A stretch of 64,000 bases of DNA from an uncultured Candidatus Berkelbacteria bacterium (GCA_903877885.1 CAIRFN010000004.1:19869-83868); one strand, 5' to 3'; counted from the first letter of the stretch, positions 35,897 to 52,454 are shown. Numbers and translations: made by a program. Notes: generated by a model from the sequence alone, not told the origin.

Positions 35897-36193
35897 ATGA
35901 CAGCGAAAAAGAAAGGTACGGGGTCAATGACCGTAGCCGAAGCCGGTCGCAAGGGCGGCACGAAGACTGCCAAAACTCATGGTCACGAGTTCTATGAGGA
36001 AATCGGCCGCAAGGGCGGGGTTAAAGTCAGGGATGAATATGGCGTGGCGTTTTACGAGGAGATTGGCCATAAAGGTGGTCAGAAGGTCAAGGATCTGATC
36101 GAAATGGGCAAGCGTGCTCAAGCCGCCGAAACCGAAGCCGATCGACGTCTGGCCGAGCGGGCCAAGGCTATCAAAAAGGGAGTCGGGAAATGA
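35897..36193 (+). CDS. KGG/Em-like (GsiB-type) stress protein
   Basis: Repeated EAGRKGG / FYEEIG(R/H)KGG. Confidence 0.85.
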   Translation: MTAKKKGTGSMTVAEAGRKGGTKTAKTHGHEFYEEIGRKGGVKVRDEYGVAFYEEIGHKGGQKVKDLIEMGKRAQAAETEADRRLAERAKAIKKGVGK

Positions 36194-36390
36194 GCGAGAA
36201 GAAATCTGGTGGTCAAATGACTGTGGCCGAAGCGGGTCGCCGCGGCGGCAATGCAGTCAAGAAAAAATACGGCACGGCGTTTTACGAGGAAATTGGCCAT
36301 AAAGGCGGTCAAAAGGTTAAACGTCTGATCGAACAGGCCAAACGAATTGAGGCCGCCGAGAAGCGCGCCGCCGAAACGCCGTGGGACTAA
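36190..36390 (+). CDS. Second KGG/Em-like stress protein (paralog)
   Basis: MTVAEAGRRGG...FYEEIGHKGG; ATGA overlap. Confidence 0.85.
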   Translation: MSEKKSGGQMTVAEAGRRGGNAVKKKYGTAFYEEIGHKGGQKVKRLIEQAKRIEAAEKRAAETPWD

Positions 36391-36470: not shown

Positions 36471-36863
36471 ATGCCTTATTTGCAAACACAAGTTACAACT
36501 CAAGCAATTATTAAAAATGAAATTGGTGAAATTTTATTATTAAGACGTAATAAACCTGGTGGCTGGTTTACCTTGCCAGGCGGCACGGTTGAGGAAGGGG
36601 AAACGGTTATTCAGGCCTTAGAACGAGAGATTCTCGAAGAAACTGGTTCGAAACTAAAAACTGCCAATCCTGTTTGGGTTTGGCAAAGTAACCATATCGG
36701 CAAAGATTTGTTAGGAATTGTTTTTAATGTTGCAGAAATTGTAAAAAAAGATACAAAAATTGAACTTACAGAAGAGCACGATAAATATCAATGGTTTAAA
36801 ATCGAGGATCTGATGGATGACGAATCAGTCGATCCTTATATCAAAAAACCAGAACTCTTTTAA
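36471..36863 (+). CDS. NUDIX hydrolase
   Basis: PGGTVEEGET...ALEREILEETG Nudix box. Confidence 0.92.
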   Translation: MPYLQTQVTTQAIIKNEIGEILLLRRNKPGGWFTLPGGTVEEGETVIQALEREILEETGSKLKTANPVWVWQSNHIGKDLLGIVFNVAEIVKKDTKIELTEEHDKYQWFKIEDLMDDESVDPYIKKPELF

Positions 36864-36921
36864 TCAAATGAAAAATATGTTTAAATAGAGTAAATAAAAT
36901 TTTAATAGATCGGAAATAATA

Positions 36922-37713
36922 ATGATTATTGATTCGCATTTACATTTAACCAAGATGACTGAAAATGAAACGCATGAAGATGCGCTTGTTTTGCTGAAAG
37001 AAAATATGGTTAAAAATAATATTGATAAGGCGATTATTATTGCGGATAACATCATTGGTTCCGATTGTGCTGATACAGATACTCTTCTTAAACTTTTAAA
37101 AACAGAAAATAATTTTTACATGGTCGGTTCGTTGCTAGTTTTAGATTATAGTCAGGCTGACTTAGATAAATTTGATAATCTTTTAAAAGAAAAGAAAATA
37201 ATTGCTCTTAAACTTTTCCCTGGTCATGATCCTTATTATCCAACTGATGCTCGTTGCGAGCCAATTTATGAATTATGCCTCAAACATGATTGTCCGATAA
37301 TCATTCATACTGGAATTAATATTGGTGATGAAGATTGTGCCAAATATAATGATCCAAAACATATTGTTGAGGTAGCTAAAAAATATTCTAAATTAAAAAT
37401 AGTAATTGCTCATTATTTCTGGCCAAAAATGGAATATTGTCACGAAATCACTAAACCTTATGACAATATTCTTTTCGATACATCAGCCATGGCTGATATT
37501 GACGTTGTCGAAGCTACTGGCGGAATAGAAAAAGTTAAAAATATCTTAGAACAAACGATTAAAGAAAAACCAAATGGAGTAATGTTCGGAACCGATTATC
37601 CATGTTGCGAAATTAAACCACATGTTGATTTGATTAATTCTTCGAATATTTCACAAGAAGAAAAAGAAAAAGTTTTTTCTGGGAACTCAATCGAGGTGTT
37701 TAAAATTAAATAA
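36922..37713 (+). CDS. Amidohydrolase superfamily protein
   Basis: DSHLH, IHTG, IAH, FGTDYP. Confidence 0.88.
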   Translation: MIIDSHLHLTKMTENETHEDALVLLKENMVKNNIDKAIIIADNIIGSDCADTDTLLKLLKTENNFYMVGSLLVLDYSQADLDKFDNLLKEKKIIALKLFPGHDPYYPTDARCEPIYELCLKHDCPIIIHTGINIGDEDCAKYNDPKHIVEVAKKYSKLKIVIAHYFWPKMEYCHEITKPYDNILFDTSAMADIDVVEATGGIEKVKNILEQTIKEKPNGVMFGTDYPCCEIKPHVDLINSSNISQEEKEKVFSGNSIEVFKIK

Positions 37714-37878
37714 AATCATTGGTATTCGCCGATGGTTTATTTAGAAGAGGAGTGCTCTTTTAAAGAATACTAATTTTCGATTTGAAGGATATTTTGAGAA
37801 CCGTCCTCGGAGTTTTATAATTTTTTGTATTTAAAAACCGCTCGAAGATTCGGGCGGCAATAGTCTAAGAAATAATGA

Positions 37879-38604
37879 TTAGCTATTTAAATTTAATTCG
37901 TTGTCGCAAAGATATTTGGCAAGACTGACCAGATTGATTTGTGGGACGATTTTCACTTGCCCGATTGTTTTAATTTCAGCAATGTTTTGCGGCATTTTTG
38001 CAATTTGTGCTAAACATTCTTCTTTGCTAAAAAGAGGCTTCATGCGTGAGTCAAACTCGTCCAATATTCCGTCTTTGCCGGCTTTTTGAAAAAAATTCCT
38101 GTATAATGACGGTTGCTTAGGTATGAATTCAACCATTTTCTCCCAGTAAGGATAATTGTTTACGCTCCAGTGCGCATAATTTTCTGCGTAATCGGATGGG
38201 TTAAACCATATGTCTGTCAATGCGCCAACAGGGTTGTTATAGCCGAGTAGGTAATATTGGCTGTATCTGCAGCTATCTTCAGGAATTCTAAAAAATATTT
38301 CTTTCATGAAGAATTGTTCGGTAAAGCTATAAACAATCATTTGTGTCGGTGAGTTGATGGCAATTGCAATACCTGCTAAGTGGTCGTTTTGACAATGAGC
38401 ATCAAATTCGCCTTCATAATGAGCGTTGATGATAGGTTCTGAGCTATCATGATCTTCAGGAAGACGATTATTAGGATGAATATACCCATTTATGTATATT
38501 GGCAATTCTTTAGGAATAGGCTCATCGCTCGCATTTCGGAGTGTATTGTATAATTCCCGAATAGTTGTTTCAAAGATCTTCATTGCTTGTTCTGACGCTG
38601 TCAT
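37879..38604 (-). CDS. Hypothetical protein
   Basis: Long ORF with AGGAGGTG RBS; no recognised motif. Confidence 0.55.
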   Translation of the reverse strand: MTASEQAMKIFETTIRELYNTLRNASDEPIPKELPIYINGYIHPNNRLPEDHDSSEPIINAHYEGEFDAHCQNDHLAGIAIAINSPTQMIVYSFTEQFFMKEIFFRIPEDSCRYSQYYLLGYNNPVGALTDIWFNPSDYAENYAHWSVNNYPYWEKMVEFIPKQPSLYRNFFQKAGKDGILDEFDSRMKPLFSKEECLAQIAKMPQNIAEIKTIGQVKIVPQINLVSLAKYLCDNELNLNS

Positions 38605-38876
38605 AATGTGCACCTCCTGATAGGATAGCTTTATTTTAGCATAAGCCGAGAAAAAGTCAATAATAACAAAGAGTAACCGTATAATATTTGTTTCAAAATT
38701 TGTTACAAAGTGAGTATTGATATTGTCGATTATCTTTATGAAAAAGATAAAATCGTATTTTTTTGAGTTGGTAATAATAGATTATAAAAGTTTATATGCA
38801 TTGACAACATAAATAAAATACTATATTATTGAGTCCATCTGCTAGTCAGAGCATTTTAATAATGGAGGTTACGTTC

Positions 38877-39776
38877 ATGGTTGTCAGATTACCAAGCGCC
38901 AATCATTTTTTCAAAGGTACTAATGCCGACGAAAAAAACTATGCGAAGGAGTGTAAAAGATTGCTCCCAATAGTTGAAAAAGTATTTCAAAAATGGGTAA
39001 ATGAAATTCATCCTCAAAACAATGAAAAATTTATATATATATCTGTGAGTCAAATTCCTCTGCCACCTAGTGATGATTTTATTGGTATCTACCCAATTAG
39101 TGTATTGGATAGTGTGTTGGACAATAAGGGAAGAATCGGTCTATTAGCTATTTATAGAAAAGCTAAAGGTGAGTTTGGCTGGGAGTGTGCTATTTATCCA
39201 TCTAAAGAAAGTACAGTAAAAGAGCTAATTATTAAGACTAAAGTTGGTAATGCAAGCTTTATTAATTCAAGGATTAATAACTTAAGTCCAAAAATGGAAC
39301 AGTTTTTTACTGAAGCCAATCGAGTTAGTGAAGCTCTTATGCAATATGATACAATCGAATTATTTTTAGTCTCTCTGAGAAATTCAATCACTAGTGATGG
39401 GCTTATTCATGAAAGCGTTTTGCGGCAAAAATTGGTTGATTTCCATAAAAAATCTTTGAGAGCAATTACGATTGACAGATGTATCGCCTGGCTTTTGGAT
39501 GGTGGCATATTAAATGCAATCGAAGAAAATGGAAATTATAAATTTAAACCAATGGAATACTTCTTTTTGCTTTGTTATAAATATGATATCAAGGAAAAAG
39601 AAAATACTCAGATGAAACTGAACTTAGAATTAAAAAGGTTATTTTCTAAACGAGACAAAGCTTTAAAAGCCAAAAAAGATTTTCTGGAGGAGGCTGAAAA
39701 ACAATCAAGAATCGTTGATTCATTAGATATCGAGATTAACGATATTTCTAATAAGCTCACTGAAACCAATGATTGA
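38877..39776 (+). CDS. Hypothetical protein with C-terminal coiled coil
   Basis: Promoter TTGACA(38801)-17-TATTAT; GGAGG RBS before ATG 38877. Confidence 0.6.
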   Translation: MVVRLPSANHFFKGTNADEKNYAKECKRLLPIVEKVFQKWVNEIHPQNNEKFIYISVSQIPLPPSDDFIGIYPISVLDSVLDNKGRIGLLAIYRKAKGEFGWECAIYPSKESTVKELIIKTKVGNASFINSRINNLSPKMEQFFTEANRVSEALMQYDTIELFLVSLRNSITSDGLIHESVLRQKLVDFHKKSLRAITIDRCIAWLLDGGILNAIEENGNYKFKPMEYFFLLCYKYDIKEKENTQMKLNLELKRLFSKRDKALKAKKDFLEEAEKQSRIVDSLDIEINDISNKLTETND

Positions 39777-39941
39777 ATTATAAAAATGAGCGCCGCAATA
39801 TCTTTATAGTATGCCGAAGTGCGAGAATGAACGACTTCCTTAATTAATTCTTCGTTCTATTAAGTTGTTAGAGAATAAATTCCCTTGACAATTAATTTTA
39901 ATATAGTAGTATAAAGATAATCTAGGATCGATAATAGATGT

Positions 39942-40018
39942 TCCCCTGTAGCTCAGTTGGATAGAGCATCTGTCTTCGGAACAGAGTGTCGCAGGTTCGA
40001 ATCCTGTCAGGGGAACCA
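39942..40018 (+). tRNA. tRNA-Arg(TCG)
   Basis: Acceptor TCCCCTG/CAGGGGA, D-loop AGTTGGATA (A20), anticodon arm TCTGT-CTTCGGA-ACAGA, CCA. Confidence 0.93.
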
Positions 40019-40057
40019 ATCTATTCAAAATCCAAAACTCACTCAAATGCCGTACGT

Positions 40058-40134
40058 TCCCGGGTAGCTCAGTTGGATAGAGCATGAGATTGCGGATCTC
40101 AAGGTCGTGGGTTCGAGTCCCATCTCGGGAACCA
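40058..40134 (+). tRNA. tRNA-Arg(GCG)
   Basis: Acceptor TCCCGGG/CTCGGGA, anticodon arm TGAGA-TTGCGGA-TCTCA, CCA. Confidence 0.93.
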
Positions 40135-40223
40135 TCCCTTTTCCTTCTTTTCTCCACCTCCCGTCATTAGTTGACGGGTTTTTTATTTAAAAAAGCGCTG
40201 ATTTAATTCAGCGCTGTAATAGA

Positions 40224-41234
40224 TTATAAATTTATACTCCAGATTTTAGTATCAGGGGTTTGTTCAAAACCAAGCCTGTAGAATGCTGGGTCCATAATCA
40301 TCCAAGTCGGACATTGTTTGATATCGACAGATAATTGTTTGCAACAAAGATTTTTAGCCTCAGAAATTGCAGCCTCAGCCATTTTAATGGTTGTGTCATA
40401 ATCGTCAAGAATACCTTGAACGGCCATAGTTTGGATTATCAAAGTTTCAGTTTCTACTGAATGGACAAGTTTCATACACCCATGAATATCACTATCAATA
40501 GCGTAAACGTAGAATTCATTAATATTTGTGCTGATATATTTTATGTCAGCACGATGATAAAAACTATCTTGAGCTAAAATTCTGATGATTTCAGCAATAT
40601 CGTCATTATTTGCTTTACGGCAATTTTGATAAATATTAGCAGAAATCATTGTTCCGACTCCTTCTGTCGAAAATAGTTCTTTGATTAAACTATTTTCTCG
40701 ATGACGGTGTCCAGAGATAAAATGGACCCTCTTAATTCCTTCTTCGCAGGCTTTTATAGCTAGAAGGAGTTTATGTTTCATAAAACCTTTGATAACTGAT
40801 GTGTCGGCAATATTTTTAGCACTAGCTATATCAAGCTGATGTAGAAGCGCTTGTTCGTTATTGTATATGCCATCACTGGTAGTGATAAAAATTAATTTAT
40901 CCGCTCCTATCTTGATAGCTAATTCATAAGCGCGTACATCAGCGTCTTCATCTGCGCCTTTGATTAAAATAGGTATTATTCCATGTCCCATTTCAGTAAA
41001 ACCAGCCGAGAAGTCATATAGTAGACTCATGTCATCGATAACACTACCCAGCGGCTCGATTCCGGCCAAATAGATTAGCATATTTGTTGTCTCGGCTATC
41101 AAAATAATGTCTTTAGCTAAACCATTTTTTAATATATTTTCGCAGACATTGTGGTCGATTTTGATGACAACTTTCTGTCCATCAAAATGCTTAGCATAGA
41201 GTAGTACATTCCTGATTAAACGGCTCGTATTCAT
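40224..41234 (-). CDS. Degenerate ArgA-like (N-acetylglutamate synthase AAK + GNAT) protein
   Basis: VVIK, LAIKIGADKLIFIT, GIKRVHFI, ELFSTEGVGTMI Arg-binding motif, RKANNDDI linker; AAK domain shortened; no clear acetyl-CoA motif. Confidence 0.7.
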   Translation of the reverse strand: MNTSRLIRNVLLYAKHFDGQKVVIKIDHNVCENILKNGLAKDIILIAETTNMLIYLAGIEPLGSVIDDMSLLYDFSAGFTEMGHGIIPILIKGADEDADVRAYELAIKIGADKLIFITTSDGIYNNEQALLHQLDIASAKNIADTSVIKGFMKHKLLLAIKACEEGIKRVHFISGHRHRENSLIKELFSTEGVGTMISANIYQNCRKANNDDIAEIIRILAQDSFYHRADIKYISTNINEFYVYAIDSDIHGCMKLVHSVETETLIIQTMAVQGILDDYDTTIKMAEAAISEAKNLCCKQLSVDIKQCPTWMIMDPAFYRLGFEQTPDTKIWSINL

Positions 41235-42442
41235 GATTTTCCTCCTTTGCAACAAAAATGACGAATTAGCTCGACATAATGAGTAATGTGGATCGGATCA
41301 AGGAAATTTTCATCAATAGATTCGAAGTCTTGATGCGCATCCCTAATCGATCCCGGCCCTAATATTATTGTATCAGCGCCAGTTCTATGACTAAATATAG
41401 TGGCTTCAGAGCTATAGGAAACTCCTTCGGCTTTTCTATCAAAAATTGTTTCAGCTGCTTCAACCAAATTACATGATTTACTTGTCTCAAGTGGTAGAGT
41501 TGGCGAAGTATTGAACTCAACTTGAATATTTATTCTCTTGTCTTCACTCCGATTCCGATTAATATTATCCGCTATTTGTTCGATAGTAGATTCTAAAAGA
41601 TTGAAAATCGTACCACTATCCTGTCCGTGCATAAAACGTATATCACATTCCAGTTTTATTTCACCAGGAATGATATTTTTAGCTGCATTTGCCCCCATGA
41701 CAATATTACCAATATTCATAGTGGCGTAGTTAGGATCATAATTAACATCTTTAAATTTTCTTAGATGTAGTCCAAATTTTTCAAGTCCGTCAATTACTTG
41801 TGGCAAAGCAATTGTTATTACGTTTACTAAATCTCGAGGGTCAGAACTGTGACTACAACCTTTATTACTTTTCCGCGTGATATTTATTCGGAAGAACATA
41901 TAGCCTTTCTGAAAACGCATCGGGACAAGTAAAGTTGGTTCGCCAACGATAATATTTTTTGCGGGAATAAATTCTTTTTCTGAAAGAAGAAGTTTAACAC
42001 CTTTACAACCTAGTTCTTCGGTATGCGTAAAATATAAAGCCAGACTCTCTGATAGGTCTTCATCTGGAATAGAACTAGCTGCTAGCATGGCCATAGCCAA
42101 AAAAAGTTTCATATCAGTTATGCCTAAACCTTGATATCTTTTTCCTTTTTTAGCGACTGTAAAAACATTGTCTTTCCAGCTTTTGGGATTATAAGAAACA
42201 GTATCAGTATGACCAGATAAAGCTAAGATTGGTTTAGCACTTGGTCCTTTAACGGCCACAAGGTTTGTTTTTTTGCCATTGCCGAAAGAAGTGATTTTGA
42301 ATCTATTTTTTTCACAAAATTCTGCAATGTATTCCAGTGTTAATTTATAACCAGTACCGTCATCAGAAACTACACACTCTTTACTGATAGTGTTAAAACT
42401 TACTAATCTGGTGACCAGATCGAGTAAAGTCAGAGTTTTCAT
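41231..42442 (-). CDS. argE: Acetylornithine deacetylase (M20 family)
   Basis: LSGHTDTV, GITDMK, EELG, GEPT, HSS, GPGSIRDAH; overlaps the argA-like gene. Confidence 0.8.
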   Translation of the reverse strand: MKTLTLLDLVTRLVSFNTISKECVVSDDGTGYKLTLEYIAEFCEKNRFKITSFGNGKKTNLVAVKGPSAKPILALSGHTDTVSYNPKSWKDNVFTVAKKGKRYQGLGITDMKLFLAMAMLAASSIPDEDLSESLALYFTHTEELGCKGVKLLLSEKEFIPAKNIIVGEPTLLVPMRFQKGYMFFRINITRKSNKGCSHSSDPRDLVNVITIALPQVIDGLEKFGLHLRKFKDVNYDPNYATMNIGNIVMGANAAKNIIPGEIKLECDIRFMHGQDSGTIFNLLESTIEQIADNINRNRSEDKRINIQVEFNTSPTLPLETSKSCNLVEAAETIFDRKAEGVSYSSEATIFSHRTGADTIILGPGSIRDAHQDFESIDENFLDPIHITHYVELIRHFCCKGGKS

Positions 42443-42611
42443 GGTTTATCCTCCGTCAGATAAATTGTCAAGGTTCCTTGATTACTTCTGTTCTATCACA
42501 GAACAAATAATAAATCAACTAAAATATTTAGGCATCTTGACATTAGTTGAATATAATGTTATTAATAAGGCCAGCGTACCTTAACTTATCAATAAAAAGG
42601 GGGATTGTCCG

Positions 42612-44462
42612 ATGACAAGTATTGTGACTCTGCGACAACATATTACCGACATGGTAATTACGATGCTCGAAAAGGTTTATAAGAAAAAACCCGAGGTTGT
42701 TAACCTCTCATTGGCTACCGATTTGCGATTCGGCGATTTTCAGATTGCTTGTTTTCAATTTGCTAAGTTCGCAAAGACAAGTCCTGTCGAAATTGCCAAA
42801 GTAATTGCACTGGAATTGGGTAGTTCACCAGACTGGATTTTTTCAAAAGTCGAAGCTATTGGTCCGTATGTTAACCTTACAATTAAGCCAAATCTCTTAT
42901 TTAGTTTGGTTTGTCTTGATTTAGATCAACATGATTTGTTTAGTCAAATATCAATTGGTCATGGTCAGAAGGTAATGGTTGAATATCTCTCGCCAAATAC
43001 AAATAAACCGCTTCATCTCGGTCATGTTCGTAACGGCGTGTTAGGTACGGCATTATCTAATATTTTGACATTAGTGGGTTACAATTTAATCAAAGCTAAT
43101 TTGATCAATGACCGTGGTATCCATATCTGTAAATCAATGTTAGCTTGGCAACGTTGGGGAAATGGCGAGACGCCTGAAACAAATAGTAAAAAAGGCGATC
43201 ACTTAGTTGGCGATTATTATGTTAAATTTGATACTGAGTTTAAAAAGCAACTTTATTCATTAAGAGATGATCGACCAGAATTGAGTGGAAAAACTGATAA
43301 AGAAATTGATGAACTCGCTGACGATTATTTTTTCGAAACTGAAATCGGTCAAGCAGCGCAAGCAATGTTGCGGCATTGGGAGGATGGGAATCAAGAAATC
43401 CGTGATATTTGGAAGATGATGAATCAATGGGTTTACGCTGGTTTTAACGAAACCTACGAGCAATATGGCTTTTCTTTTGATCGTTTTTATTATGAAAATC
43501 AAACTTATTTACTCGGTAAAGATATCGTTCAATCTGGTATTGACCGCGGAATATTTGTTACTGAAGAGAACGGTCAAGTTGTGGCATTATTACCCAAAGA
43601 TGGGTTTGGCTTAGAATCGGGTGGTCACCAAAAACGTATTACCGTGTTGCGCCCTGATGGCACTAGTGTTTATATGACACAGGATATTGGAACTGCTCAG
43701 TTAAAATATGATGATTACGGTTTAGATCGTTCAATTTATATTGTTGGTTCGGAGCAGAACTATCATTTCCAATGTCTATTTCATATTCTAAAGTCACTTG
43801 GATTTAATTGGGCACACGGTTGTTTTCATCTTTCATACGGTATGGTTTATTTACCGCATGGTCGGATGAAATCACGAGAGGGTACAGTAGTTGATGCCGA
43901 TAATTTATTGGAAGAAGTGATTAAGCTTGCAGAGGTGCAAGTTAGAAGTCACAACGAAAATTTACCTTGTCGTGAGATTCTGAAACGGGCACACGATATC
44001 GCTTTAGCAGCCATTAAGTTCTTTTTGTTACGTGTTGGCTCTAGTGTCGATATTCATTTTGATCCAGAAGAATCACTTTCGTTTGAAGGTAATACTGGCC
44101 CGTATTGTCAATATGCTTTTGCTCGAGCCTGTTCTGTAATGGAAAAAGCTGCAAATTTAAGTTTAATACAAACGCCAAATTTCAGTTTATTAGGTAATGC
44201 TGAAGAACGAGCATTGGCTCAAAAGATTATCGGTTTCGCCGATAGTGTTAAAGCGTCTGCTGAAGATATGAGTCCTTCGAAAGTGGCAAACTATATCTTC
44301 GATTTAGCTCGAGCCTTTAATCTGTTCTACGAAAAGCATAAGATTATCGATAGTGACAATATTGAATTAACCACTGCAAGATTTGCTTTGGTTCGTTCAG
44401 TGGCTATGGTGTTAAAACGAGGACTGTTATTATTGGGAATTCCGGTTTTGGAAAATATGTAA
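42612..44462 (+). CDS. argS: Arginine--tRNA ligase
   Basis: EYLSPNTNKPLHLGH, YMTQDIG, RMKSREG, FEGNTGPY.QY, C-terminal ENM. Confidence 0.97.
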   Translation: MTSIVTLRQHITDMVITMLEKVYKKKPEVVNLSLATDLRFGDFQIACFQFAKFAKTSPVEIAKVIALELGSSPDWIFSKVEAIGPYVNLTIKPNLLFSLVCLDLDQHDLFSQISIGHGQKVMVEYLSPNTNKPLHLGHVRNGVLGTALSNILTLVGYNLIKANLINDRGIHICKSMLAWQRWGNGETPETNSKKGDHLVGDYYVKFDTEFKKQLYSLRDDRPELSGKTDKEIDELADDYFFETEIGQAAQAMLRHWEDGNQEIRDIWKMMNQWVYAGFNETYEQYGFSFDRFYYENQTYLLGKDIVQSGIDRGIFVTEENGQVVALLPKDGFGLESGGHQKRITVLRPDGTSVYMTQDIGTAQLKYDDYGLDRSIYIVGSEQNYHFQCLFHILKSLGFNWAHGCFHLSYGMVYLPHGRMKSREGTVVDADNLLEEVIKLAEVQVRSHNENLPCREILKRAHDIALAAIKFFLLRVGSSVDIHFDPEESLSFEGNTGPYCQYAFARACSVMEKAANLSLIQTPNFSLLGNAEERALAQKIIGFADSVKASAEDMSPSKVANYIFDLARAFNLFYEKHKIIDSDNIELTTARFALVRSVAMVLKRGLLLLGIPVLENM

Positions 44463-44559
44463 TATTTGAAGATTCCAGCTGGCCGTTGTGAAAACAACGG
44501 CTTTTTTGATACTTATTGACAAAATTGAAGTTTCATGTGATAATAGCCAAAGTTGATGT

Positions 44560-44637
44560 TCCCGTGTAGCTCAGTTCGGATAGAGCAACTGCCTTCTAAG
44601 CAGTAGGTCACCGGTTCAAATCCGGTCACGGGAACCA
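44560..44637 (+). tRNA. tRNA-Arg(TCT)
   Basis: Acceptor TCCCGTG/CACGGGA, anticodon arm ACTGC-CTTCTAA-GCAGT, CCA; own promoter at 44516 and hairpin at about 44652-44672. Confidence 0.93.
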
Positions 44638-44737
44638 ATTATCTTTTTTAAAGGCCGCCTTCGGGCGGCCTTATTCATTGACAATTTTTAACTTATAGAA
44701 TAGAATACAATTAACCGACGAGGTAAGGAGGTTGGTC

Positions 44738-45094
44738 ATGATTGTAATGGGTTGCAATGAGGAAACTGTACCTCTGCAGATGGTCAACTATCTGCTTCAG
44801 GTCTTTCGACAGTTTGGCAAAGTTGGTATTGCCGCTAACAGTATTAATTCTCAAAGTATCGCGATTCGAAGTATGCAATTACTTTGCGAAGAAATTTCGC
44901 AAGAAGATCGGCACAAAATAGAATTCTACGTACTTGATGAAGACATTAATGTGTTAGGAGAAAGTAAACTTGCTGGTTTAGAAGCTGTACCGATTACTGA
45001 CATTGATAAAGCGATGAATCGATTCAACCAAACTCATAACGGATTTCATTATATTTGTCTCGTTGCAAAAAAATGTTTAGACTACCAAATCTGA
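44738..45094 (+). CDS. Hypothetical protein, N-terminus faintly SpoVS/Alba-like
   Basis: Own promoter TTGACA(44678)-17-TAGAAT, GGGAGG RBS, terminator at about 45098-45121; weak visual similarity to SpoVS. Confidence 0.45.
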   Translation: MIVMGCNEETVPLQMVNYLLQVFRQFGKVGIAANSINSQSIAIRSMQLLCEEISQEDRHKIEFYVLDEDINVLGESKLAGLEAVPITDIDKAMNRFNQTHNGFHYICLVAKKCLDYQI

Positions 45095-45129
45095 ATTTCC
45101 GGGCTAACACCCGGTTTTTTTATTCTCTA

Positions 45130-45158
45130 TTGACAAGATGAATAAAACAATTTATATT
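45130..45158 (+). promoter_or_regulatory. Sigma70-type promoter of the leader/PLP/ATP-grasp operon
   Basis: TTGACA-17 bp-TATATT. Confidence 0.65.
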
Positions 45159-45170
45159 AAAATTACGAAT

Positions 45171-45236
45171 ATGAATATAATCCGTCGTCGAAATTTATTA
45201 AATCGCTTAAGGTTGCTTGATGGCAATTTGACTTAG
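45171..45236 (+). CDS. Putative Arg-rich attenuator leader peptide MNIIRRRNLLNRLRLLDGNLT
   Basis: Tandem CGT-CGT-CGA at 45183-45191 plus CGC and AGG; overlaps the antiterminator arm. Confidence 0.7.
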   Translation: MNIIRRRNLLNRLRLLDGNLT

Positions 45237-45290
45237 TATTATCAAAAAAATCGAATTTCTATCAAGCGACCTTAAGCGAGGTCGTTTTTT
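45203..45290 (+). promoter_or_regulatory. Antiterminator/terminator pair (transcription attenuator)
   Basis: 45203-45221 pairs with 45261-45279 (19 bp, one G-U); mutually exclusive terminator GCGACCT-taagcg-AGGTCG followed by T6 (45266-45290). Confidence 0.78.
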
Positions 45291-45334
45291 GTATTCTCGG
45301 TACCTTACAACTTATGCGCAAAGGGGGAATGGTC

Positions 45335-46591
45335 ATGGCGAAGATATTTGAATGTCTAATCTGTGGTAATACAGTTTATGAAAGTGATATTTACACACAC
45401 AAAGCTGTACATCCTGGTTTAAAAAGCTATGGTTATATGTGGCCAAGCTATTATGAAGAAAACCCAAATCGGAATCTTCGGTTAGCTCCAATTCACCAGT
45501 CTACATTATTTGCTGAGGCTATCGGTGTAAGTGAAGTGTATATTCGTGACGAAGGCCAAAATCTTTCTGGTAGTATGAAAGATTATATCGTTGAAGAAGC
45601 AGTGAATTTAGGTATTGCTGACGGCGCCAATGTTTTTACAGTAGTTTCAAGCGGTAATCAAGCTTTTTCATTAGCTAAATACACGCAATTGGCTGGGAAA
45701 AAAGCTGTTTTGTTCGCACCAGAATCATCATCAAAGATTGGTATACTTTCTACTCTAGATAACGTTTTCATCTTAGCTGTAAAAGATGCCATCTTCGAAG
45801 ATGTATATCGTTTGGCAGCGGATCTAAACTTACCTGGCGTGTACAACGCCAATGTAACGAACGATTTATTGCTACCTGGTTTAGTTACAGTGAGTCGACA
45901 GATTATTGAGGCAGGGCTTAATATCGATTATGTTTTGTCTGGTGTTGGTAATGGTACATATTTGGCTGGCCTAACACTTGGCTTTATGAAGTATCGATAC
46001 GCTTTGCCAAAAATCATTCCAGTTGGGATGATGGGGGCTTTCCCAACTCAAGTCGCACTTGAAAACGGGATATCTTGTTATGAATATCAAGACTTTCAAG
46101 TTGATGAATCGATTATAGATGCGGCTGAAGGTTCGATTGCTATTGCTAGTTACAGTATGCCTCAGCTCATCCATGCTATCACTGTTTCCAATGGTTTTTG
46201 TCTTGGCGATTTACTTAATTCTGATTTGGCTACAGCCTATGATCTTTTGTATCAGGACAAAGCGTTGGTTGATGCAGGTGCTATTCCTGAACCAACAGGT
46301 ATAATGGGTTTAGCTGCGGCAATCAAATATCGCAACTGTTTTGGGTCAAAAAGTCGTTTACTTATCTCATTTACTGGTCATGGAGTCAAAGATTTAGAGG
46401 GAATTAAGCGACTTGTGCCAAATTTGTATGACGAATTGTCTGCGGCGGCTTTAGCTAGTCGTCCGGATTTATCTGTGTCCTTCGCGGAAATGGATATGTC
46501 CAAGATCAAGCTAATCGACAAAGAAATGTCAAAAACTGACATTGAGTCGATAGTGTATAACTGGCTTCGGAAAGAAGGGGGTAACTTATGA
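45335..46591 (+). CDS. Threonine-synthase-like fold-type II PLP-dependent enzyme with N-terminal CxxC...HxxxH zinc motif
   Basis: DEGQNLSGSMKD (PLP Lys), SSGN, GVGNG, PEPTG, SFTGHGVK. Confidence 0.85.
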   Translation: MAKIFECLICGNTVYESDIYTHKAVHPGLKSYGYMWPSYYEENPNRNLRLAPIHQSTLFAEAIGVSEVYIRDEGQNLSGSMKDYIVEEAVNLGIADGANVFTVVSSGNQAFSLAKYTQLAGKKAVLFAPESSSKIGILSTLDNVFILAVKDAIFEDVYRLAADLNLPGVYNANVTNDLLLPGLVTVSRQIIEAGLNIDYVLSGVGNGTYLAGLTLGFMKYRYALPKIIPVGMMGAFPTQVALENGISCYEYQDFQVDESIIDAAEGSIAIASYSMPQLIHAITVSNGFCLGDLLNSDLATAYDLLYQDKALVDAGAIPEPTGIMGLAAAIKYRNCFGSKSRLLISFTGHGVKDLEGIKRLVPNLYDELSAAALASRPDLSVSFAEMDMSKIKLIDKEMSKTDIESIVYNWLRKEGGNL

Positions 46592-47820
46592 AACGGATAA
46601 TCATCGACACTCAAAGCAACAGGCTTTTTCAAGGTATTGCTGCTGAACAAAATTATGATCAGCGAGGTGGACTTTGTCAAGTTGGAGAAGGTAATGTTGT
46701 CGTAACAACTAATCCTATCAATGTTGATTATTTGGATTATTGGCAAGAAGTCGGTTTTAGTTTGCCACATCTACTTACAGTTGGACCATTCGATCCTAGT
46801 TGTACAATTTCAGATTTAATTGTTCGTAATTTGGATGTCCAGACAGAAATTAAACGTTTAATTGATGGCTCAAATGCTCGTTTAGAATTCTTTTGTATTG
46901 AAGAATCTGAACGTAAGCTTGTTGAAACATTGGGCATCGAACCATATTGTAATATTGACGTTTCGATCAAACTTTCGAGAAAGCATAATTTTAAATCTTT
47001 ATGTGAAGAAATCGGTCTACCAACTCCAGAGTGGTTGGTTGGCAGAGATCGACGCGATCTCGCGAAGTATGGCAAAAAATTTCTGAGCGACTATTCTCAA
47101 CCATTTTTAGTAAAATCAGTTGATGGTACTGGTGGAATTTCTTGCGGCGGTATGGCATTAGTCAGAAATCAAGAGGAATTACTCCATCTTTGTAGTAATT
47201 CTGCTACGCTTGGTAACCATTTTATTTTGGAAAAGTTAATTCCTGATAAGGATGTTGAACTGTCGATTCATTGGCAGATAACTAAAGATTATGAATTAAT
47301 GGTTACTGATATTTTTTGTCAGCTTTCCGATAATTTTGCTTATGCTGGTGCTTGTGGTCCAGTCGACATTGCGCCGTCAATTAAAGATGAGATTATCTTA
47401 ACCTTAAAGGATATTTTCGCTCCAGCTTTGATTAAGGCGGGTGCTATTGGCTTCTTCTGTTGTGACCTGATCGTCGATAAATCTGGAAAAGTTTTTTGGA
47501 TTGACTTCAATCCGAGAAAAGGTGCAATCATCTATATTCATAGTATGGTTAGCCGTCTTTCCCAGAATGTTTTTGATAATAAGAGGCTCCATTTTTTTCA
47601 CCGGCATTGCCAGGCTGATAAAAATTTAAGCTTTTCTGAAGTGTATCAAAAAATCGGTCATCTTATGACACCAAGCGAAGATCCATTCGTAGTCATTACA
47701 AATCCTGGTTTGATTGAATATGGCTACGTTGATATCACTGGTATCTCTCATAATTCTGTTGATGAAGCACGTGAGTTTTTTGTCCAAGCCGAACAAACGA
47801 TAAAAAACACAGCGTGTTAA
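46588..47820 (+). CDS. ATP-grasp peptide ligase, PGM1-like (pre-ATP-grasp N-terminus)
   Basis: N-terminal NYDQR...VVVTT.P...DYLDY; KHNFK, LVKSVDGTGG, ILEK, CDLIV, IDFNPR. Confidence 0.7.
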   Translation: MKRIIIDTQSNRLFQGIAAEQNYDQRGGLCQVGEGNVVVTTNPINVDYLDYWQEVGFSLPHLLTVGPFDPSCTISDLIVRNLDVQTEIKRLIDGSNARLEFFCIEESERKLVETLGIEPYCNIDVSIKLSRKHNFKSLCEEIGLPTPEWLVGRDRRDLAKYGKKFLSDYSQPFLVKSVDGTGGISCGGMALVRNQEELLHLCSNSATLGNHFILEKLIPDKDVELSIHWQITKDYELMVTDIFCQLSDNFAYAGACGPVDIAPSIKDEIILTLKDIFAPALIKAGAIGFFCCDLIVDKSGKVFWIDFNPRKGAIIYIHSMVSRLSQNVFDNKRLHFFHRHCQADKNLSFSEVYQKIGHLMTPSEDPFVVITNPGLIEYGYVDITGISHNSVDEAREFFVQAEQTIKNTAC

Positions 47821-47923
47821 AAAGTTATTTCACAGGGTAATCCGCGTGATTACCCTTTTTAATTACTATTTAACACATAATTAAAAAATTTAGTTAAAGA
47901 ACTGAATATGGTAAAATTTTAAT

Positions 47924-49006
47924 ATGAAAATAAAATCGATTACGTTTAAAGAATTTAATTTAAAACTTTCAGAGCCGTTTAGCTACTATACGGCGACTTT
48001 AGAATGTCTTCCTTATGAAATTATAACAATAAAGACTGATAACGAGATCTTCGGATTTGGCGAAGCGGCTTTGGCTTGGGATGTAACTGGAGAAACACAA
48101 GAAGGAGCACTTGGTCTTTTTAAATATATTAAACCTTTGTTAATAAATCATAAACTGAATTCTATCGAAGATATTAAAGAAATGATGAAAAATATCGACC
48201 TAAATGTTCATGAGAACTCTGCCTTGAAATCAGGTATAGAATTTGCTCTTTTAGACGTTTTGGGAAAATTTAAAAACAAACCAGTTTACAAACTATTAGG
48301 TGGAAAAGAAAAAGAATTTGTTGTTGCTCAAAGAGTTTTTCCTTATAAAGAAAAACATTCCGATGATCTTCAACAAAAAATTACTTTAAGCCTTCAAAAC
48401 GGCGCAGAAATCATTAAATTTAAAGCAGGAGAAAATTCAGAGATAGATTACCAAATTATCGAAAAAGTTGTTAACTTTTTTCCGACAATAAAATTAGTCT
48501 TAGATGTCAACCAAGGTTGGAAAAATTTCTTGAATGCTTGGCCAATAATTAAAAAATTGGAAAAATTTAAAAAAAATATTTTATGGATTGAACAACCGAT
48601 ATTTTCAAGTGATTATGAAGGGCTAGCTGAACTGAGTAAGAAAAGCGAAATTTTGATTATGGCTGACGAAAGTTGTCATAATCTACTTGATTTGAAAAAT
48701 CTTTACCTAAACAAATCAGTCAAACTAATTAATATTAAATTAGCAAAATGCGGTGGGATTCTCCCAGCGATGGAAATGGTTAAGTTTTGTGAAGAAAAAG
48801 ATATAAAATATATGTTAGGTGATATGATCAATTCCCCTTTAGGGACTGCTGCCAATCTTCAGATGGCTACATTAGGAAATTTCATTAGTTACGATCTGAC
48901 ACTCAATAATAAAATTGAGTCTGATCCGACTTCTGGTCTAAAAATTGATGGTTATAAATTCTATATACCACAAACATCTGGCATAGGTGTAAGCTTAAAG
49001 AATTGA
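47924..49006 (+). CDS. Enolase superfamily enzyme (MLE subgroup, dipeptide-epimerase-like)
   Basis: GFGEA, KFK, LDVNQ, EQP, ADES, NIKLAK. Confidence 0.85.
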   Translation: MKIKSITFKEFNLKLSEPFSYYTATLECLPYEIITIKTDNEIFGFGEAALAWDVTGETQEGALGLFKYIKPLLINHKLNSIEDIKEMMKNIDLNVHENSALKSGIEFALLDVLGKFKNKPVYKLLGGKEKEFVVAQRVFPYKEKHSDDLQQKITLSLQNGAEIIKFKAGENSEIDYQIIEKVVNFFPTIKLVLDVNQGWKNFLNAWPIIKKLEKFKKNILWIEQPIFSSDYEGLAELSKKSEILIMADESCHNLLDLKNLYLNKSVKLINIKLAKCGGILPAMEMVKFCEEKDIKYMLGDMINSPLGTAANLQMATLGNFISYDLTLNNKIESDPTSGLKIDGYKFYIPQTSGIGVSLKN

Positions 49007-49099
49007 AATAAAAGATAAAATATGATATGAATAGGTTGGTAGAAGATAAAAAATTATCTGCTACTGATCATTAACATTGAAGAAGGGGAGGAATTAGTC

Positions 49100-50167
49100 A
49101 TGAGTTTGTCCAACACATTTAGAGAATTAGTAGAAATTGATAGTCCATCTGGCCAAGAGCAGGCAGTGGCTAAATATTTGGAAATTTGGCTGACTAGTCA
49201 AAATTTTGAATATTTTAAGGATGATATTGGTAACATTTTGGCTTTCCGATCTGGAAGTGGCGAACCGTTACTTTTATGTGCACATATGGACGTGGTAGAT
49301 CCTTGTTTAGGGGTTAAGCCATCGTTTATCAACGGTGTAGTTAAAAGTGATGGCACTACTGTTCTTGGCGCTGATAATAAAGCATCAATTGCTGCAATTA
49401 TTAAGGGGGTTGAAGATTATTTGGCGCAAACAGGTGAGCCAAGAGCAATCGAGATTCTTTTCGCTGTCAAGGAAGAAACTGGCGGTGGTGTAGAATTCAT
49501 GGACTTCTCTAAAATTAAGTCAAAACAAGGAATTATATTTGACTTAATTAAGCCGATTGGCACAATCGCTATTGCCTCACCATATATTTACAATTTTCAC
49601 ATTAAATTTACTGGCAAATCTTCTCATGCTAGTCGACCGGATGAAGGGAAAAGTGCACTTAAACCGGCGGCGAAATTGATTACTAGTGCCGATGATGGGT
49701 TTTTAGATAATGGTTTAACAACTATTAATTTCGGAAAAATAGAAGCTGGTACTGGTATTAATATTATACCAGAAACAGCAACTATTCATGGCGAAGTTCG
49801 CAGTTTTAAAAAAGATTTATTTGAAGCACATTTGGAAGCAATAGAGAAAATGGCTAAAAAATGTGCTAGTGAAGATGGCGTAAAAGTAGACTTTACCACG
49901 GACGGCCGTTGTGCCGGTTATGAGTTTCCAGAAGATGATACATTTATAAAAAAAATTAGCGCGGTTTTAGCTAAGAATGGTCATAAAATTGTTTTTTATA
50001 AAACATCTGGCATAAGTGATTCCAATCCGCTTGTTGAAGCCGGTATTAAAGTGGTGACTTTAGGTGACGGTATTACAAAAGCTCATACAGTCGAAGAAGA
50101 AATCAGCCTTGAATCGCTCGAAAGTATGCGAGCATTAGTTTTTGATTTTCTTCAAAAATTAGATTAG
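49100..50167 (+). CDS. M20 family peptidase (PepT-like)
   Basis: AHMD, LGADNK, KEETG, SSHA, AHTVEE. Confidence 0.88.
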   Translation: MSLSNTFRELVEIDSPSGQEQAVAKYLEIWLTSQNFEYFKDDIGNILAFRSGSGEPLLLCAHMDVVDPCLGVKPSFINGVVKSDGTTVLGADNKASIAAIIKGVEDYLAQTGEPRAIEILFAVKEETGGGVEFMDFSKIKSKQGIIFDLIKPIGTIAIASPYIYNFHIKFTGKSSHASRPDEGKSALKPAAKLITSADDGFLDNGLTTINFGKIEAGTGINIIPETATIHGEVRSFKKDLFEAHLEAIEKMAKKCASEDGVKVDFTTDGRCAGYEFPEDDTFIKKISAVLAKNGHKIVFYKTSGISDSNPLVEAGIKVVTLGDGITKAHTVEEEISLESLESMRALVFDFLQKLD

Positions 50168-50293
50168 TTTTAGAGAGGTTTGCCTGGCTTACCTCTTTTT
50201 TATAATATAATTTTTTTGTCTTGACTATCTAAGATCTTTAGTTTAAAATTTATTTATTGATTAATTCTAAAAGAAATATAGGAGAACTATCAA

Positions 50294-50770
50294 ATGATAA
50301 TAAATGTATCTCAAGGTTTGGGTACTGGCAAAACTGAACTTTCTGCTTTTGATAAAGCATTGTATGAAGCAGGTGTTGCTAATTATAATCTTGTTCGTCT
50401 GTCGTCAGTCATTCCAGTTGGCGCTGAAGTAAAAATAAATCAACTTAGTGATAATGCTCGTAACGAATTTGGTTATAAATTATTTTTAGTTTATGCTGAA
50501 CAACGTGAATCTGAAATTGGCAAAGAAGCTTGGGCGGGAGTTGGTTGGGTTCAAACCGAAGACGGTCGAGGGCTATTTGTTGAGCATGAAGGCTCGAGTG
50601 AAAAAGAAGTTCGTGGTTTAATTAAAAATAGTTTGACGGATATGGTCAAATATCGAAAAGATTATAAATTTGGCGAAATTAATTATTCGGTTTGTGGTAT
50701 ACGTTGTGAAGACCAGCCAGTCTGCGCTTTTATGGCCGCTGTTTATCAAAGTCAAAGCTGGGATAAATAG
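50294..50770 (+). CDS. Pyruvoyl-dependent arginine decarboxylase
   Basis: AFD.AL..AGVANYNLVRLSSVIP self-cleavage motif. Confidence 0.85.
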   Translation: MIINVSQGLGTGKTELSAFDKALYEAGVANYNLVRLSSVIPVGAEVKINQLSDNARNEFGYKLFLVYAEQRESEIGKEAWAGVGWVQTEDGRGLFVEHEGSSEKEVRGLIKNSLTDMVKYRKDYKFGEINYSVCGIRCEDQPVCAFMAAVYQSQSWDK

Positions 50771-51105
50771 TTACAGGACTAATTCGTTGGAATAGAATAT
50801 TTTACACCGTTCTAATTTATTTTAGATAAATAATTGTGCTAAAGACTTAAATAAAAAGTATGGGAGCTTCGTTCCGCGGAATTTTTAAATACGGGAATAT
50901 AACAGGTATTTAAAAATATAACAATAAGTGTACTATGGTCGTAATAAAAGTATAATGATAAGATAAGTTTTTAGTTAAAATTAAACTATGTCCCTTGACT
51001 TTTGGGTAAATTAAAGGTAAAATCATCTCAACTATTGAATGGTTGAGTCGAGTAACTTTGACTTAACTTTTCATGGAACTGAACAAATTAGAGGAGGGAA
51101 GGATA

Positions 51106-52383
51106 ATGAGTAATCTCGCTACGGCTAATAGGAATGGTGTGTTAACTCGCAATAAAGTTACTGATATGGGGCGTGGTGTCACCAGATTTCTGAAAGATTC
51201 TGGTTATTACCCGCATATTAGCAAAGTAGATTCCACGGTGGACGGTGAGGTCACAATTAATGGTAAGGCTTGCGTAAATTTTTATTCTAATTCATTCTTG
51301 GGTCTCACCAATCATCCGAAAATTATCGAAGCAAAGAAGGCAGCATTAGACAAATATGGCAATGGAAGCGGATCATCAAGAATGATCACGACGCAAAGTA
51401 TTTTGTATGAGTTAGAAGAAAGGATTGCGGCCTTCAAAAATCGTGAATCAGCCATTGTATTTTCTGCCGGCATGCTTGTTAATTGGGGTGTTATTCCTGC
51501 TTTAGCAAATTCATCACTAAAACCTCTAATAAGAGAGCTTGGCGGTGAAGACTTGTTTGCTCCAGTTTCACTCTTTCTTGACAAGTTTAATCATTCATGT
51601 ATTCATGATGGGGCCGCATTGTCTATGTGTAATTTTTGGGCTGGTCGTGCAAAAGTTCATATGTATGAGCATATGGATATGGCCGATCTCAGGAAAGAAT
51701 TGGAAAACGACAAAAATGAATATAAGATTATCATAACAGATGGAGTTTTCTCGATTCATGGCCATATAGCACCGTTAAATGAAATACTATTACTGGCGCA
51801 AGAGTTTAATGCTGCTATTTATGTCGATGATGCTCATGGTACTGGTGTTCTCGGGCCAAATGGCAGAGGAACAGCCGAAGAGCTAGGGATTGACTCAGAA
51901 ATCGATATTCCAGTTGGCACTTTCTCTAAAGCGTTTGGGTGTGCTGGTGGATTTGTTGTAGGCGATAAAGATTTTTGTGATTATCTGCGTGTTGCTTCCA
52001 GGACATATGTCTATCAAACGGCAATGCCACCAGAAAATGCAGGTGGTTTAATTGCAGCAATTGATATTGCAGAGAAGGAGCCATGGCGTCGTCGGCAAGT
52101 GCTAGCTAATGCAACAAAGGTCCGAAATGAATTTCAACGTTTGGGATTTAGTACTCTCGGTACAAAATTTCATATCGTTCCGATTCTAATTGAGGATGTT
52201 GAAGTCGCAACGAAGATTGCAGACGATTTGCTTGATCAGGGAGTTATTACAGGTTGCGTAAAGCCACCCGTTGCAACACAACCAATTATTCGTTGCAATA
52301 TGATGGCAACACACACAGAAGAGCATCTTGATCGTTTAGTCTCAATCATTGAGACAAGTGCGAAAAAGTATGGTCTGATCTAG
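51106..52383 (+). CDS. Alpha-oxoamine synthase family PLP enzyme (BioF/Kbl/SPT-like)
   Basis: SNSFLGL, NHSCIHDG, TDGVFS, DDAHGTG, GTFSKAFG. Confidence 0.88.
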   Translation: MSNLATANRNGVLTRNKVTDMGRGVTRFLKDSGYYPHISKVDSTVDGEVTINGKACVNFYSNSFLGLTNHPKIIEAKKAALDKYGNGSGSSRMITTQSILYELEERIAAFKNRESAIVFSAGMLVNWGVIPALANSSLKPLIRELGGEDLFAPVSLFLDKFNHSCIHDGAALSMCNFWAGRAKVHMYEHMDMADLRKELENDKNEYKIIITDGVFSIHGHIAPLNEILLLAQEFNAAIYVDDAHGTGVLGPNGRGTAEELGIDSEIDIPVGTFSKAFGCAGGFVVGDKDFCDYLRVASRTYVYQTAMPPENAGGLIAAIDIAEKEPWRRRQVLANATKVRNEFQRLGFSTLGTKFHIVPILIEDVEVATKIADDLLDQGVITGCVKPPVATQPIIRCNMMATHTEEHLDRLVSIIETSAKKYGLI

Positions 52384-52391
52384 TATCTATT

Positions 52392-52420: not shown

Positions 52421-52454
52421 CAAAATAAAAATAAATTGTTAAACTAGAGTTAAT

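Follow-up and report, generated by a model that had tools for sequence, protein, structure and literature searches.

We examined an arginine locus in a 64,000-nucleotide stretch of DNA (the window) from an uncultured Candidatus Berkelbacteria bacterium (GCA_903877885.1 CAIRFN010000004.1:19869-83868). The locus carries a second arginyl-tRNA synthetase (ArgRS), three extra tRNA-Arg genes, an operon with an arginine-codon leader, and genes for a racemase, an ATP-grasp ligase and two M20-family hydrolases. We read it, with moderate confidence, as an arginine-starvation rescue island: backup decoding joined to a likely acylate-racemise-deacylate salvage of L-arginine. The host genome, from the Patescibacteria, is 1.0 Mb and 99% complete; named homologs are, for the most part, also from Patescibacteria. 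These bacteria are described as being without most amino-acid metabolism. Positions 36500-53500 are backed, with zero differences, by two contigs from the assembly of run X1, which overlap within the tRNA-Arg(TCT) gene. A second sample also spans the region, in pieces. Note that both samples come from one study and that X1 is possibly the source of the genome itself.

The initial annotation, made from the DNA alone, listed three tRNA-Arg genes, argS, ArgE-like and ArgA-like genes and an Arg-codon leader, and all lie where it placed them (Table 1). It closed the block at 47820. The block in fact reaches 50167, taking in the racemase and a PepT-like M20 hydrolase. We assign 47924-50167 to the locus because G271, a genome of the same family, has a matching order (racemase 57% identical, PepT-like M20 54%). 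A pyruvoyl arginine decarboxylase, put at about 2.5 kb downstream, starts 2.47 kb past 47820; it was found in 0 of 25 other loci tabulated. The genes argB, argC, argD, argF, argG and argH, already reported absent from the window, were not found in the whole genome either. Briefly, the families of argG, ornithine transcarbamylase (OTC), argD and argC had no match anywhere in the genome, and the argH and kinase queries had none outside the window. Two CPSase-family matches were rejected; by sequence, they resemble D-Ala-D-Ala ligase and an ADP-forming acyl-coenzyme A (acyl-CoA) synthetase.

The block recurs. Among 24 genome loci with the ATP-grasp gene, eight, in eight other genomes, also have ArgRS, a pyridoxal phosphate (PLP) enzyme, the racemase and an M20 hydrolase. 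Five of these full loci add an argE/argA-like pair, five argG, four argH and one OTC. In G271, as here, argA-argE is divergent from argS, which is followed there by the PLP enzyme, a GNAT protein, the racemase and the PepT-like M20. That locus adjoins the same histidine kinase and regulator genes as here, a common neighbourhood that suggests an old acquisition or a hotspot. The racemase subfamily is rare; it occurs in 4 of 401 genomes of the phylum, two of which contributed to the query, and in 5 of 162 genomes of the class; it was not found in G484, a genome of the same genus (94% complete). No argC scored above the cut-off in 23 non-planctomycete genomes, and no argG did in G271, G401, G188 or G540. 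The genes are co-located in other genomes, and the ArgRS and tRNAs are extra copies and not the vertically inherited ones, as set out below; on both counts this is contrary to what the initial annotation had named as its refutation.

The island ArgRS scores 419 bits against TIGR00456, where the cut-off is 262 bits, and has Add1, catalytic and DALR domains. It retains HLGH, GRMK(S), EYLSPN, Y..QD, SEQ, GPY.N, the A20-site residues and the C-terminal Met; we assume the roles of these pocket and A20-site residues. From its sequence, the protein is in our reading a normal ArgRS that charges arginine but is of a foreign type. The search for a second argS, advised by the initial annotation, located another ArgRS gene on contig C8 (L072:4694-6277), behind tyrS. 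The two proteins are 28-36% identical in two segments. In a quick tree of 47 rows, with SH-aLRT support, the C8 housekeeping enzyme groups with those of G271 and G483, family and order relatives (support 98). The island enzyme falls in a separate clade of 13 rows (98), made up of eight island copies, G221, and four from genomes in which no other DALR match was found (G029, G085, G180 and G547). The second ArgRS of G051 and that of G153/G171 fall outside this clade. Of the 8 genomes that carry a full block, 7 have two DALR matches; the island gene of G541 is truncated by the contig end. Two matches are also present in G271, G188, G051, G401, G153 and G171 and, at class level, in 7 of 162 genomes. 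The C8 enzyme has TLGN instead of HIGH, as do those of G271 and G483, and G477 has TIGN. Judging by this motif, a weaker TLGN-type housekeeping ArgRS might favour a backup copy.

The tRNA genes of the window were called by ARAGORN and rechecked with Rfam (66-72 bits, cut-off 29 bits). Elsewhere, the genome carries five ordinary tRNA-Arg genes, with G1-C72, on contigs C1 and C6 (GCG on C1, TCG and TCT on C6, and CCG and CCT), so the island trio are extras. It had been proposed that the CGT and CGA codons of the leader are read by the island GCG and TCG tRNAs. There is no such dependence, since ordinary GCG and TCG tRNAs are encoded elsewhere in the genome. Furthermore, CGN makes up 74% of Arg codons in island genes and 76% in other genes, so island genes have no special need for CGN tRNAs. 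A tRNA-Arg pattern that recovers 8 of 8 genes in this genome was run on the 401 phylum genomes and the table was read by eye; one unpublished genome (G154) enters the denominator only. Four genomes, this one, G051, G153 and G171, have eight matches, and the extras are always clustered beside a second ArgRS. In the latter three, five tRNA-Arg genes stand in a row (L068:12710-13107, L105:14884-15408 and L106:3858-4369) within about 4 kb of the second ArgRS and an arginine deiminase-like gene, with three ordinary copies elsewhere in each. The G051 array has an ACG anticodon in place of the GCG used by the others. Since G153 and G171 are one genus, the four genomes count as three lineages. Five further genomes have six or seven matches; one ArgRS or none was found in each, the copies are mostly scattered, and there is no such cluster beside ArgRS.

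The operon's leader is akin to leader-peptide attenuators of the his, trp, thr and ilv type. The leader here, MNIIRRRNLLNRLRLLDGNLT (45171-45236), has the Arg codons CGT CGT CGA in a run, and later CGC and AGG. According to the predicted folds, a ribosome stalled at RRR leaves the antiterminator to form, and one at the stop codon leaves a terminator with six U. Control codons, overlapping antiterminator and terminator, and a conserved layout, the features of an attenuator, are all present in the folding prediction. Seven other loci with Arg-run leaders were chosen by eye among 50 upstream regions scanned, and 6 of the 7 have the same predicted switch. One of these leaders sits before argG, which fits an operon that is on when arginine is short. 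TTGACA or TTGACT lies just upstream of the leader in five of the seven. The operon had been described as Arg-attenuated; the predicted folds agree with this, although the terminator at 47834-47861 leaves only the PLP and ATP-grasp genes within the attenuated unit. An equivalent hairpin occurs in all 13 gaps examined, and 9 of these also have a U-run. When this locus is included, the ligase gene is within the leader-controlled unit in 6 of 8. The racemase and M20 genes are possibly transcribed from a leaderless promoter behind the terminator.

The racemase matches PDB entry 2P88 with an E value of 3.4e-67. Entries 2P88, 2P8B and 2P8C we take to be BC0371 of B. cereus. Residues K165, K167, D194, E223, D248 and K272 (the KxK motif, three Mg ligands and the strand-6 Lys) are invariant in 11 of 11 sequences. 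The site of the DxD motif reads D-L-T here, E-L-T in 2P88 and D-L-D in the dipeptide epimerase 3JVA. At the site of its second Asp, 84 close homologs have Thr in 72 cases and Asp in 6, and Asp is found in 0 of the 11 aligned sequences. In this motif, the enzyme departs from the L-Ala-D/L-Glu dipeptide epimerases. In BC0371-type enzymes, an acidic loop pair presumably binds the cationic side chain; LAWDV of the racemase aligns with VADDHV there, with a single, shifted Asp. In sequence, the enzyme is most like an N-succinyl-Arg/Lys racemase of the BC0371 type. A review (PMC2948282) describes BC0371 as clustering with dipeptide epimerases, lacking three residues typical of them, and preferring N-succinyl-L-Arg.

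A GNAT protein, a racemase and an M20 enzyme form a published D-to-L pathway (bioRxiv 10.1101/2022.03.03.481873). The resemblance to our loci lies in a racemase subgroup without DxD, a deacylase-family neighbour in every case, and an upstream gene for acyl transfer at 13 of the 14 loci. These 14 are the racemase loci with context (G469 and L025 were excluded as fragments), and 14 of 14 have the deacylase-family gene. Their acyl-transfer slot holds only an ATP-grasp gene in eight, only GNAT in four, both in one and neither in one. Unlike the published pathway, the arrangement here usually has ATP-grasp in place of GNAT, and adds a PLP enzyme, Arg-codon attenuation and a linked second ArgRS. Neither GNAT protein of G271 matches anything in this genome, where the ATP-grasp gene occupies the slot; by this feature, the locus would act like the pathway but is no member of it. 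An M20 gene is present beside the racemase, as in the pathway; the PepT-like M20 is the likely deacylase of the block. One AstE-like neighbour was tested, and its nearest PDB entries are N-acyl deacylases.

Because ligase and GNAT are nearly complementary in the same slot, the ATP-grasp enzyme is likely an ATP-driven N-acylating enzyme. It has 91 relatives at 35-75% identity, and its fold matches both BesA (8YI6) and 3WVQ with a TM-score of 0.79 at 13-16% identity. The PLP enzyme is of fold-type II, retains the PLP lysine, and scores under the cut-off of all threonine-synthase models. The Ser and Arg of the NSVNPYR motif, which we take to be ligands of the substrate phosphate in threonine synthase, are replaced in the family by Val (91 of 101) and Leu (85 of 101), and invariant acidic residues are gained. 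An SSGNH loop, presumably as in serine racemase, is found in 87 of 101 members, and an Asp/Glu-family racemase is present in two loci without the PLP gene (G401 and G547). Together, the loop and the Asp/Glu-family racemases hint at racemase or lyase activity of the PLP enzyme, with a basic amino acid as the putative substrate; its role and that of the ArgA-like protein are the weakest parts of the reading.

The ArgE-like M20 protein keeps its metal ligands: H78, D110, E142, E143, E168 and H370 are shared by all 8 sequences compared. It matches its family at 211 bits, under the curated cut-off of 298. The ArgA-like protein has the AAK and GNAT architecture (117 bits, curated cut-off 344). Its Q/RxxGxG acetyl-CoA loop is degenerate, as in most Patescibacteria copies, and is partly retained in L019 and L038. 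Since the ELFSxEGVGT segment, presumably an arginine-binding signature, is kept but the acetyl-CoA loop is lost, the protein is probably not a working glutamate acetylase. It is possibly an arginine sensor for ArgE. A predicted complex of the two scored 0.28, where the mark is 0.32, and carries no weight here.

In the rescue scheme, a fall in charged tRNA-Arg would stall the ribosome at RRR, free the antiterminator and allow transcription of the PLP and ATP-grasp genes. A ribosome that reaches the leader stop would let the terminator form. The ATP-grasp enzyme would then acylate the alpha-amine of a D-amino acid, with a succinyl, beta-aspartyl or gamma-glutamyl group, using ATP and not acyl-CoA. 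The racemase would invert the acylated product and an L-specific M20 enzyme would strip the tag, making the route one-way. In this manner, D-arginine or N-acylated arginine would be converted to L-arginine. The island ArgRS and its own tRNAs would keep arginine codons readable during shortage, and would function on arrival in a new host. Since no ArgG was found in this genome or in G271, the guanidino group should already be present in the product here; citrulline may be what is made at loci with argG and argH. The initial annotation had proposed salvage of N-acyl ornithine or citrulline. Salvage remains the best reading, but those substrates do not suit this genome, where OTC, ArgG and ArgH were not found.

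Several observations weigh against the rescue scheme. The substrates are putative, no source of D-arginine was identified in the analysis, and the known D-to-L route includes no step for the PLP enzyme. The lead of 2P88 over 3JVA is small (230 and 222 bits), and its identity as BC0371 is presumed. The racemase lies behind the terminator, outside the attenuated unit, and the stalled fold of G551 retains the terminator. Of the 8 full loci, 5 carry argG, in many cases together with argH and in most without OTC, a combination that suggests citrulline at those loci. The full block is lacking in 16 of 24 ATP-grasp loci. In 15 of 24, no racemase is in the sequenced stretch, and many have only a deacylase or binding protein. 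Conversely, G488, G469 and G278:C162 have the racemase without ArgRS in the available stretch.

A bolder form of the scheme is conceivable, and we advance it tentatively. Here, the island would be a portable, partly orthogonal second decoding system, with an ArgRS that prefers its own tRNAs and assumes decoding during arginine starvation or D-Arg poisoning. It would be fed L-arginine by the CoA-free ATP-grasp/racemase/hydrolase route, which is not known to have been described, under a his/trp-style arginine attenuator. Defence against an arginine antagonist, either canavanine-type or D-Arg, seems doubtful to us. The ArgRS would reject the antagonist, the PLP enzyme would gamma-eliminate it, and the acyl and racemase steps would neutralise it. 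A second aminoacyl-tRNA synthetase (aaRS) beside a PLP lyase fold, as found here, is a layout that we associate with resistance. The PLP enzyme has kept the threonine-synthase fold while exchanging its phosphate Ser and Arg and gaining acidic residues, and a competing analogue would likewise lower Arg-tRNA and open the attenuator. However, the ArgRS pocket has no distinctive change and close relatives are the sole ArgRS of their genomes. Frequent argG and argH neighbours point to supply, and defence leaves the extra tRNAs unexplained.

Peptide salvage is unlikely. On this view, a dipeptide epimerase, with the ligase and hydrolase, would free the arginine bound in cell-wall fragments or in isopeptides, beta-Asp-Arg being one example, the ATP-grasp enzyme possibly working in reverse. 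The nearest ligase structures are the dipeptide ligases BesA and LdmS, the 3JVA score is close, the M20 here is PepT-like, and peptidases of the S51, M19, M29, M1, S66 and M15 families are encoded close to several loci. Conversely, DxD is present in just 6 of the 84 close homologs, GNAT takes the ligase slot at four loci, and the AstE-like neighbour tested is nearest N-acyl deacylases.

It is improbable that the locus is a loose collection of a salvage operon and phage-derived passenger tRNAs untied to ArgRS. A U1-A72 tRNA-Arg pattern, verified on the window, was matched in 14 metagenome and 3 viral stretches, mostly phage-like contigs and none near module genes, and the best identities of two island tRNAs (84% and 81%) include tRNAs on phage-like contigs. 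An A72 pattern was found in 1 of 162 class genomes; this test is insensitive, as a relaxed control recovered only 1 of 5 ordinary tRNA-Arg genes here. In addition, G271 and the eight other full loci have no tRNA-Arg. However, the three island tRNAs all accept arginine and come with promoters and terminators of their own, three other genomes have five-gene tRNA-Arg sets beside a second ArgRS, and viral contigs yielded no match to the PLP and ligase families, nor plasmids any to the ligase family.

Two further proposals of the initial annotation, tRNA-dependent chemistry and self-resistance, look weak given the canonical ArgRS pocket, relatives that are sole ArgRS, and an operon predicted to open when Arg-tRNA is scarce. 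Biosynthesis of an Arg-containing peptide or antimetabolite, with Arg-tRNA serving as the donor or the second ArgRS conferring self-resistance, is decidedly improbable. BesA/PGM1-type ligases are natural-product enzymes, and paralogous aaRS genes are found in natural-product clusters (PMC2922099). Conversely, arginine scarcity would be the wrong time for spending it, every racemase is accompanied by a deacylase, and we identified no gene for an aminoacyl-tRNA transferase at the locus. Finally, tRNA-dependent synthesis, in which ArgRS would load citrulline on the U1-A72 tRNAs for amidination by GatCAB, is very improbable: GatB is present, argG and argH were not found, and the three tRNAs share U1-A72, which we take to be a GatCAB determinant, with host tRNA-Asn and tRNA-Gln, but they also carry U20a, presumably an antideterminant, the ArgRS pocket is canonical, U1-A72 is, among the island sets, peculiar to this genome (15 of 15 extra tRNA-Arg of the other three begin G1), G271 lacks argG and also such tRNAs, and phage U1-A72 tRNA-Arg occur without any of these genes.

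By analogy, the known arrangement that comes closest to the rescue island is that of catabolic amino-acid islands with a paralogous synthetase, for example tdc-tyrS; hdc-hisS and Oenococcus arc-argS2 are further cases. In tdc-tyrS islands, a second cognate synthetase is transferred horizontally along with enzymes for its amino acid (PMC11595044). Unlike these, the ArgRS here is of a distant type, four genomes have a duplicate tRNA-Arg set, and the locus looks supply-like, not catabolic. The leader resembles Salmonella orf34-speF (PMC6386406), a short open reading frame (ORF) with consecutive Arg codons where ribosome pausing controls downstream genes, and the Arg-sensing, pausing-controlled S. 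aureus rbfL (PMC13009471). According to these sources, orf34 works via Rho and RNase G, and rbfL via occlusion of the ribosome-binding site (RBS), whereas an antiterminator and intrinsic terminator are predicted here. Also unlike orf34 and rbfL, these leaders precede supply genes, including argG. BesA, PGM1 and LdmS have their fold in common with the ATP-grasp enzyme; the differences are the low identity (13-16%) and its housekeeping-like context in Patescibacteria. Homology to ArcE of T. kodakarensis, which makes arginine from citrulline without ArgG and ArgH, was rejected; ArcE resembles P-loop NTPases (PMC11032458), and the enzyme here is ATP-grasp. Mangotoxin and DgcN were considered as analogies and not adopted.

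A few percent of Patescibacteria invest in arginine, and four sampled genomes have a duplicate synthetase and tRNA set. If the rescue reading is true, the island would be a natural synthetase/tRNA cassette and a possible seed for orthogonal pairs. It would also place an ATP-grasp enzyme where D-amino-acid salvage has an acyl-CoA transferase, and provide an intrinsic-terminator attenuator for arginine. In a literature search, with most subscription journals outside its coverage, the duplicate tRNA set, the ATP-grasp substitution and such an attenuator were not found for this phylum.

Sequence features mark 38.8-47.9 kb as foreign. GGGGG-type RBSs, reported for several genes by the initial annotation, do precede argS, the PLP gene and the ATP-grasp gene; they occur at 3 of 5 core genes and at 5 of 728 other ORFs, counted at the first ATG. 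On the plus strand there are five TTGACA promoters in 6.4 kb, compared with 0.14 per kb genome-wide. No flanking direct repeats were found at 36-56 kb, and no integrase matched among 14 ORFs scanned. Of the co-evolving, possibly transferred module first proposed, transfer and the tie between decoding and unusual Arg metabolism are supported, as is recurrence. Strict co-evolution of tRNAs and enzymes is not supported, as 0 of 24 ATP-grasp loci hold tRNA-Arg, the G271 island has none, and the tRNA sets of the three other genomes have arginine deiminase-type neighbours instead of the ATP-grasp block. ADI, CtlX, OAT and decarboxylases lie beside the second ArgRS in several genomes.

Table 1. Features of the arginine locus and its surroundings (window positions unless a locus is named).
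Feature	Position	Strand	Remarks
Sigma70-like promoter for tRNA pair, TTGACA-16-TAGTAT	39885..39912	+	consensus match only
Extra tRNA-Arg(TCG)	39942..40018	+	U1-A72, A20, U20a, A73, encoded CCA
Extra tRNA-Arg(GCG)	40058..40134	+	U1-A72, A20
Two convergent terminator-like hairpins	40160..40215	.	for tRNA pair on + and argE-argA unit on -
ArgA (NAGS)-like protein, shortened	40224..41234	-	ELFSxEGVGT segment kept; GNAT acetyl-CoA loop degenerate
ArgE-like M20 deacylase	41231..42442	-	overlaps argA-like start
Promoter-like site for argS	42529..42557	+	10 of 12 match
Island ArgRS, 616 aa	42612..44462	+	GGGGG RBS; HLGH and RMKS motifs
argS terminator, then TTGACA-17-GATAAT promoter for tRNA-Arg(TCT)	44481..44544	+
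Extra tRNA-Arg(TCT)	44560..44637	+	U1-A72, A20
118-aa orphan ORF	44738..45094	+	own promoter-like site, GGAGG RBS, terminator
Promoter of attenuated operon, TTGACA-17-TATATT	45130..45158	+
Arg-codon leader peptide, 21 aa	45171..45236	+	RRR at codons 5-7
Mutually exclusive antiterminator/intrinsic terminator	45203..45290	+	antiterminator 45203-45279 (-38.8 kcal/mol); terminator 45264-45290 (-12.5 kcal/mol)
Fold-type II PLP enzyme, threonine-synthase-like	45338..46591	+	SSGN(H/Q) loop; probable N-terminal Zn site
PreATP-grasp amide ligase, BesA/PGM1/LdmS structural group	46588..47820	+
Intrinsic terminator	47834..47861	+
Enolase-superfamily racemase	47924..49006	+	best PDB match 2P88/2P8B/2P8C
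PepT-like M20 hydrolase	49100..50167	+	54% identical to post-racemase M20 of G271
Pyruvoyl arginine decarboxylase	50294..50770	+	LSS site present; adjoins block
182-aa unannotated protein	L105:7498-8043, L106:8893-9510, L108:2308-2862, L069:14881-15426

Several minor observations concern the tRNA genes. The sequence AYGT precedes all three island tRNAs (39938-39941, 40054-40057 and 44556-44559); with its GT, base pairing might continue as far as A73 and C74 and so affect 5' processing. The 182-aa protein of Table 1, with an RIxEAGHYY-like start, is encoded next to the second ArgRS in four genomes and is conserved among them. A tRNA-Ile with a TAT anticodon lies elsewhere in this genome (G000:C11 69817-69893). 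No tRNA-Phe was found by ARAGORN with default settings, so the assembly has gaps; a low-stringency run allowing introns gave noise.

Other observations concern relatives of the ATP-grasp gene. In Desulfonema and Spirochaetales records (L022, L026 and L032), the family follows an ABC substrate-binding gene, without arginine genes. The planctomycete loci L037 and L038 combine ATP-grasp, AstA-like and M20 genes with an ArgRS that has an inserted tRNA-binding domain, and L038 also has a full-length argA. A polyamine link is suggested by L035 and L039, where ATP-grasp and AstE-like genes stand in a row with genes resembling those for arginine decarboxylase and deoxyhypusine synthase.

Around the island, a 304-aa orphan ORF with a near-consensus promoter (38862-39776, + strand) is possibly within the same foreign segment. 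Family searches with this and the 118-aa orphan gave no usable family, and a search of 1.84 billion representatives gave just one distant relative for the 304-aa protein (P0195, 29%). A BioF/Kbl/serine-palmitoyltransferase-like gene (51073-52383) adjoins the island and was found at none of the related loci. Upstream, a diverged 125-nt repeat (74%) is present at 36005-36129 and 36235-36359, at the gene for a KGG-repeat stress protein.

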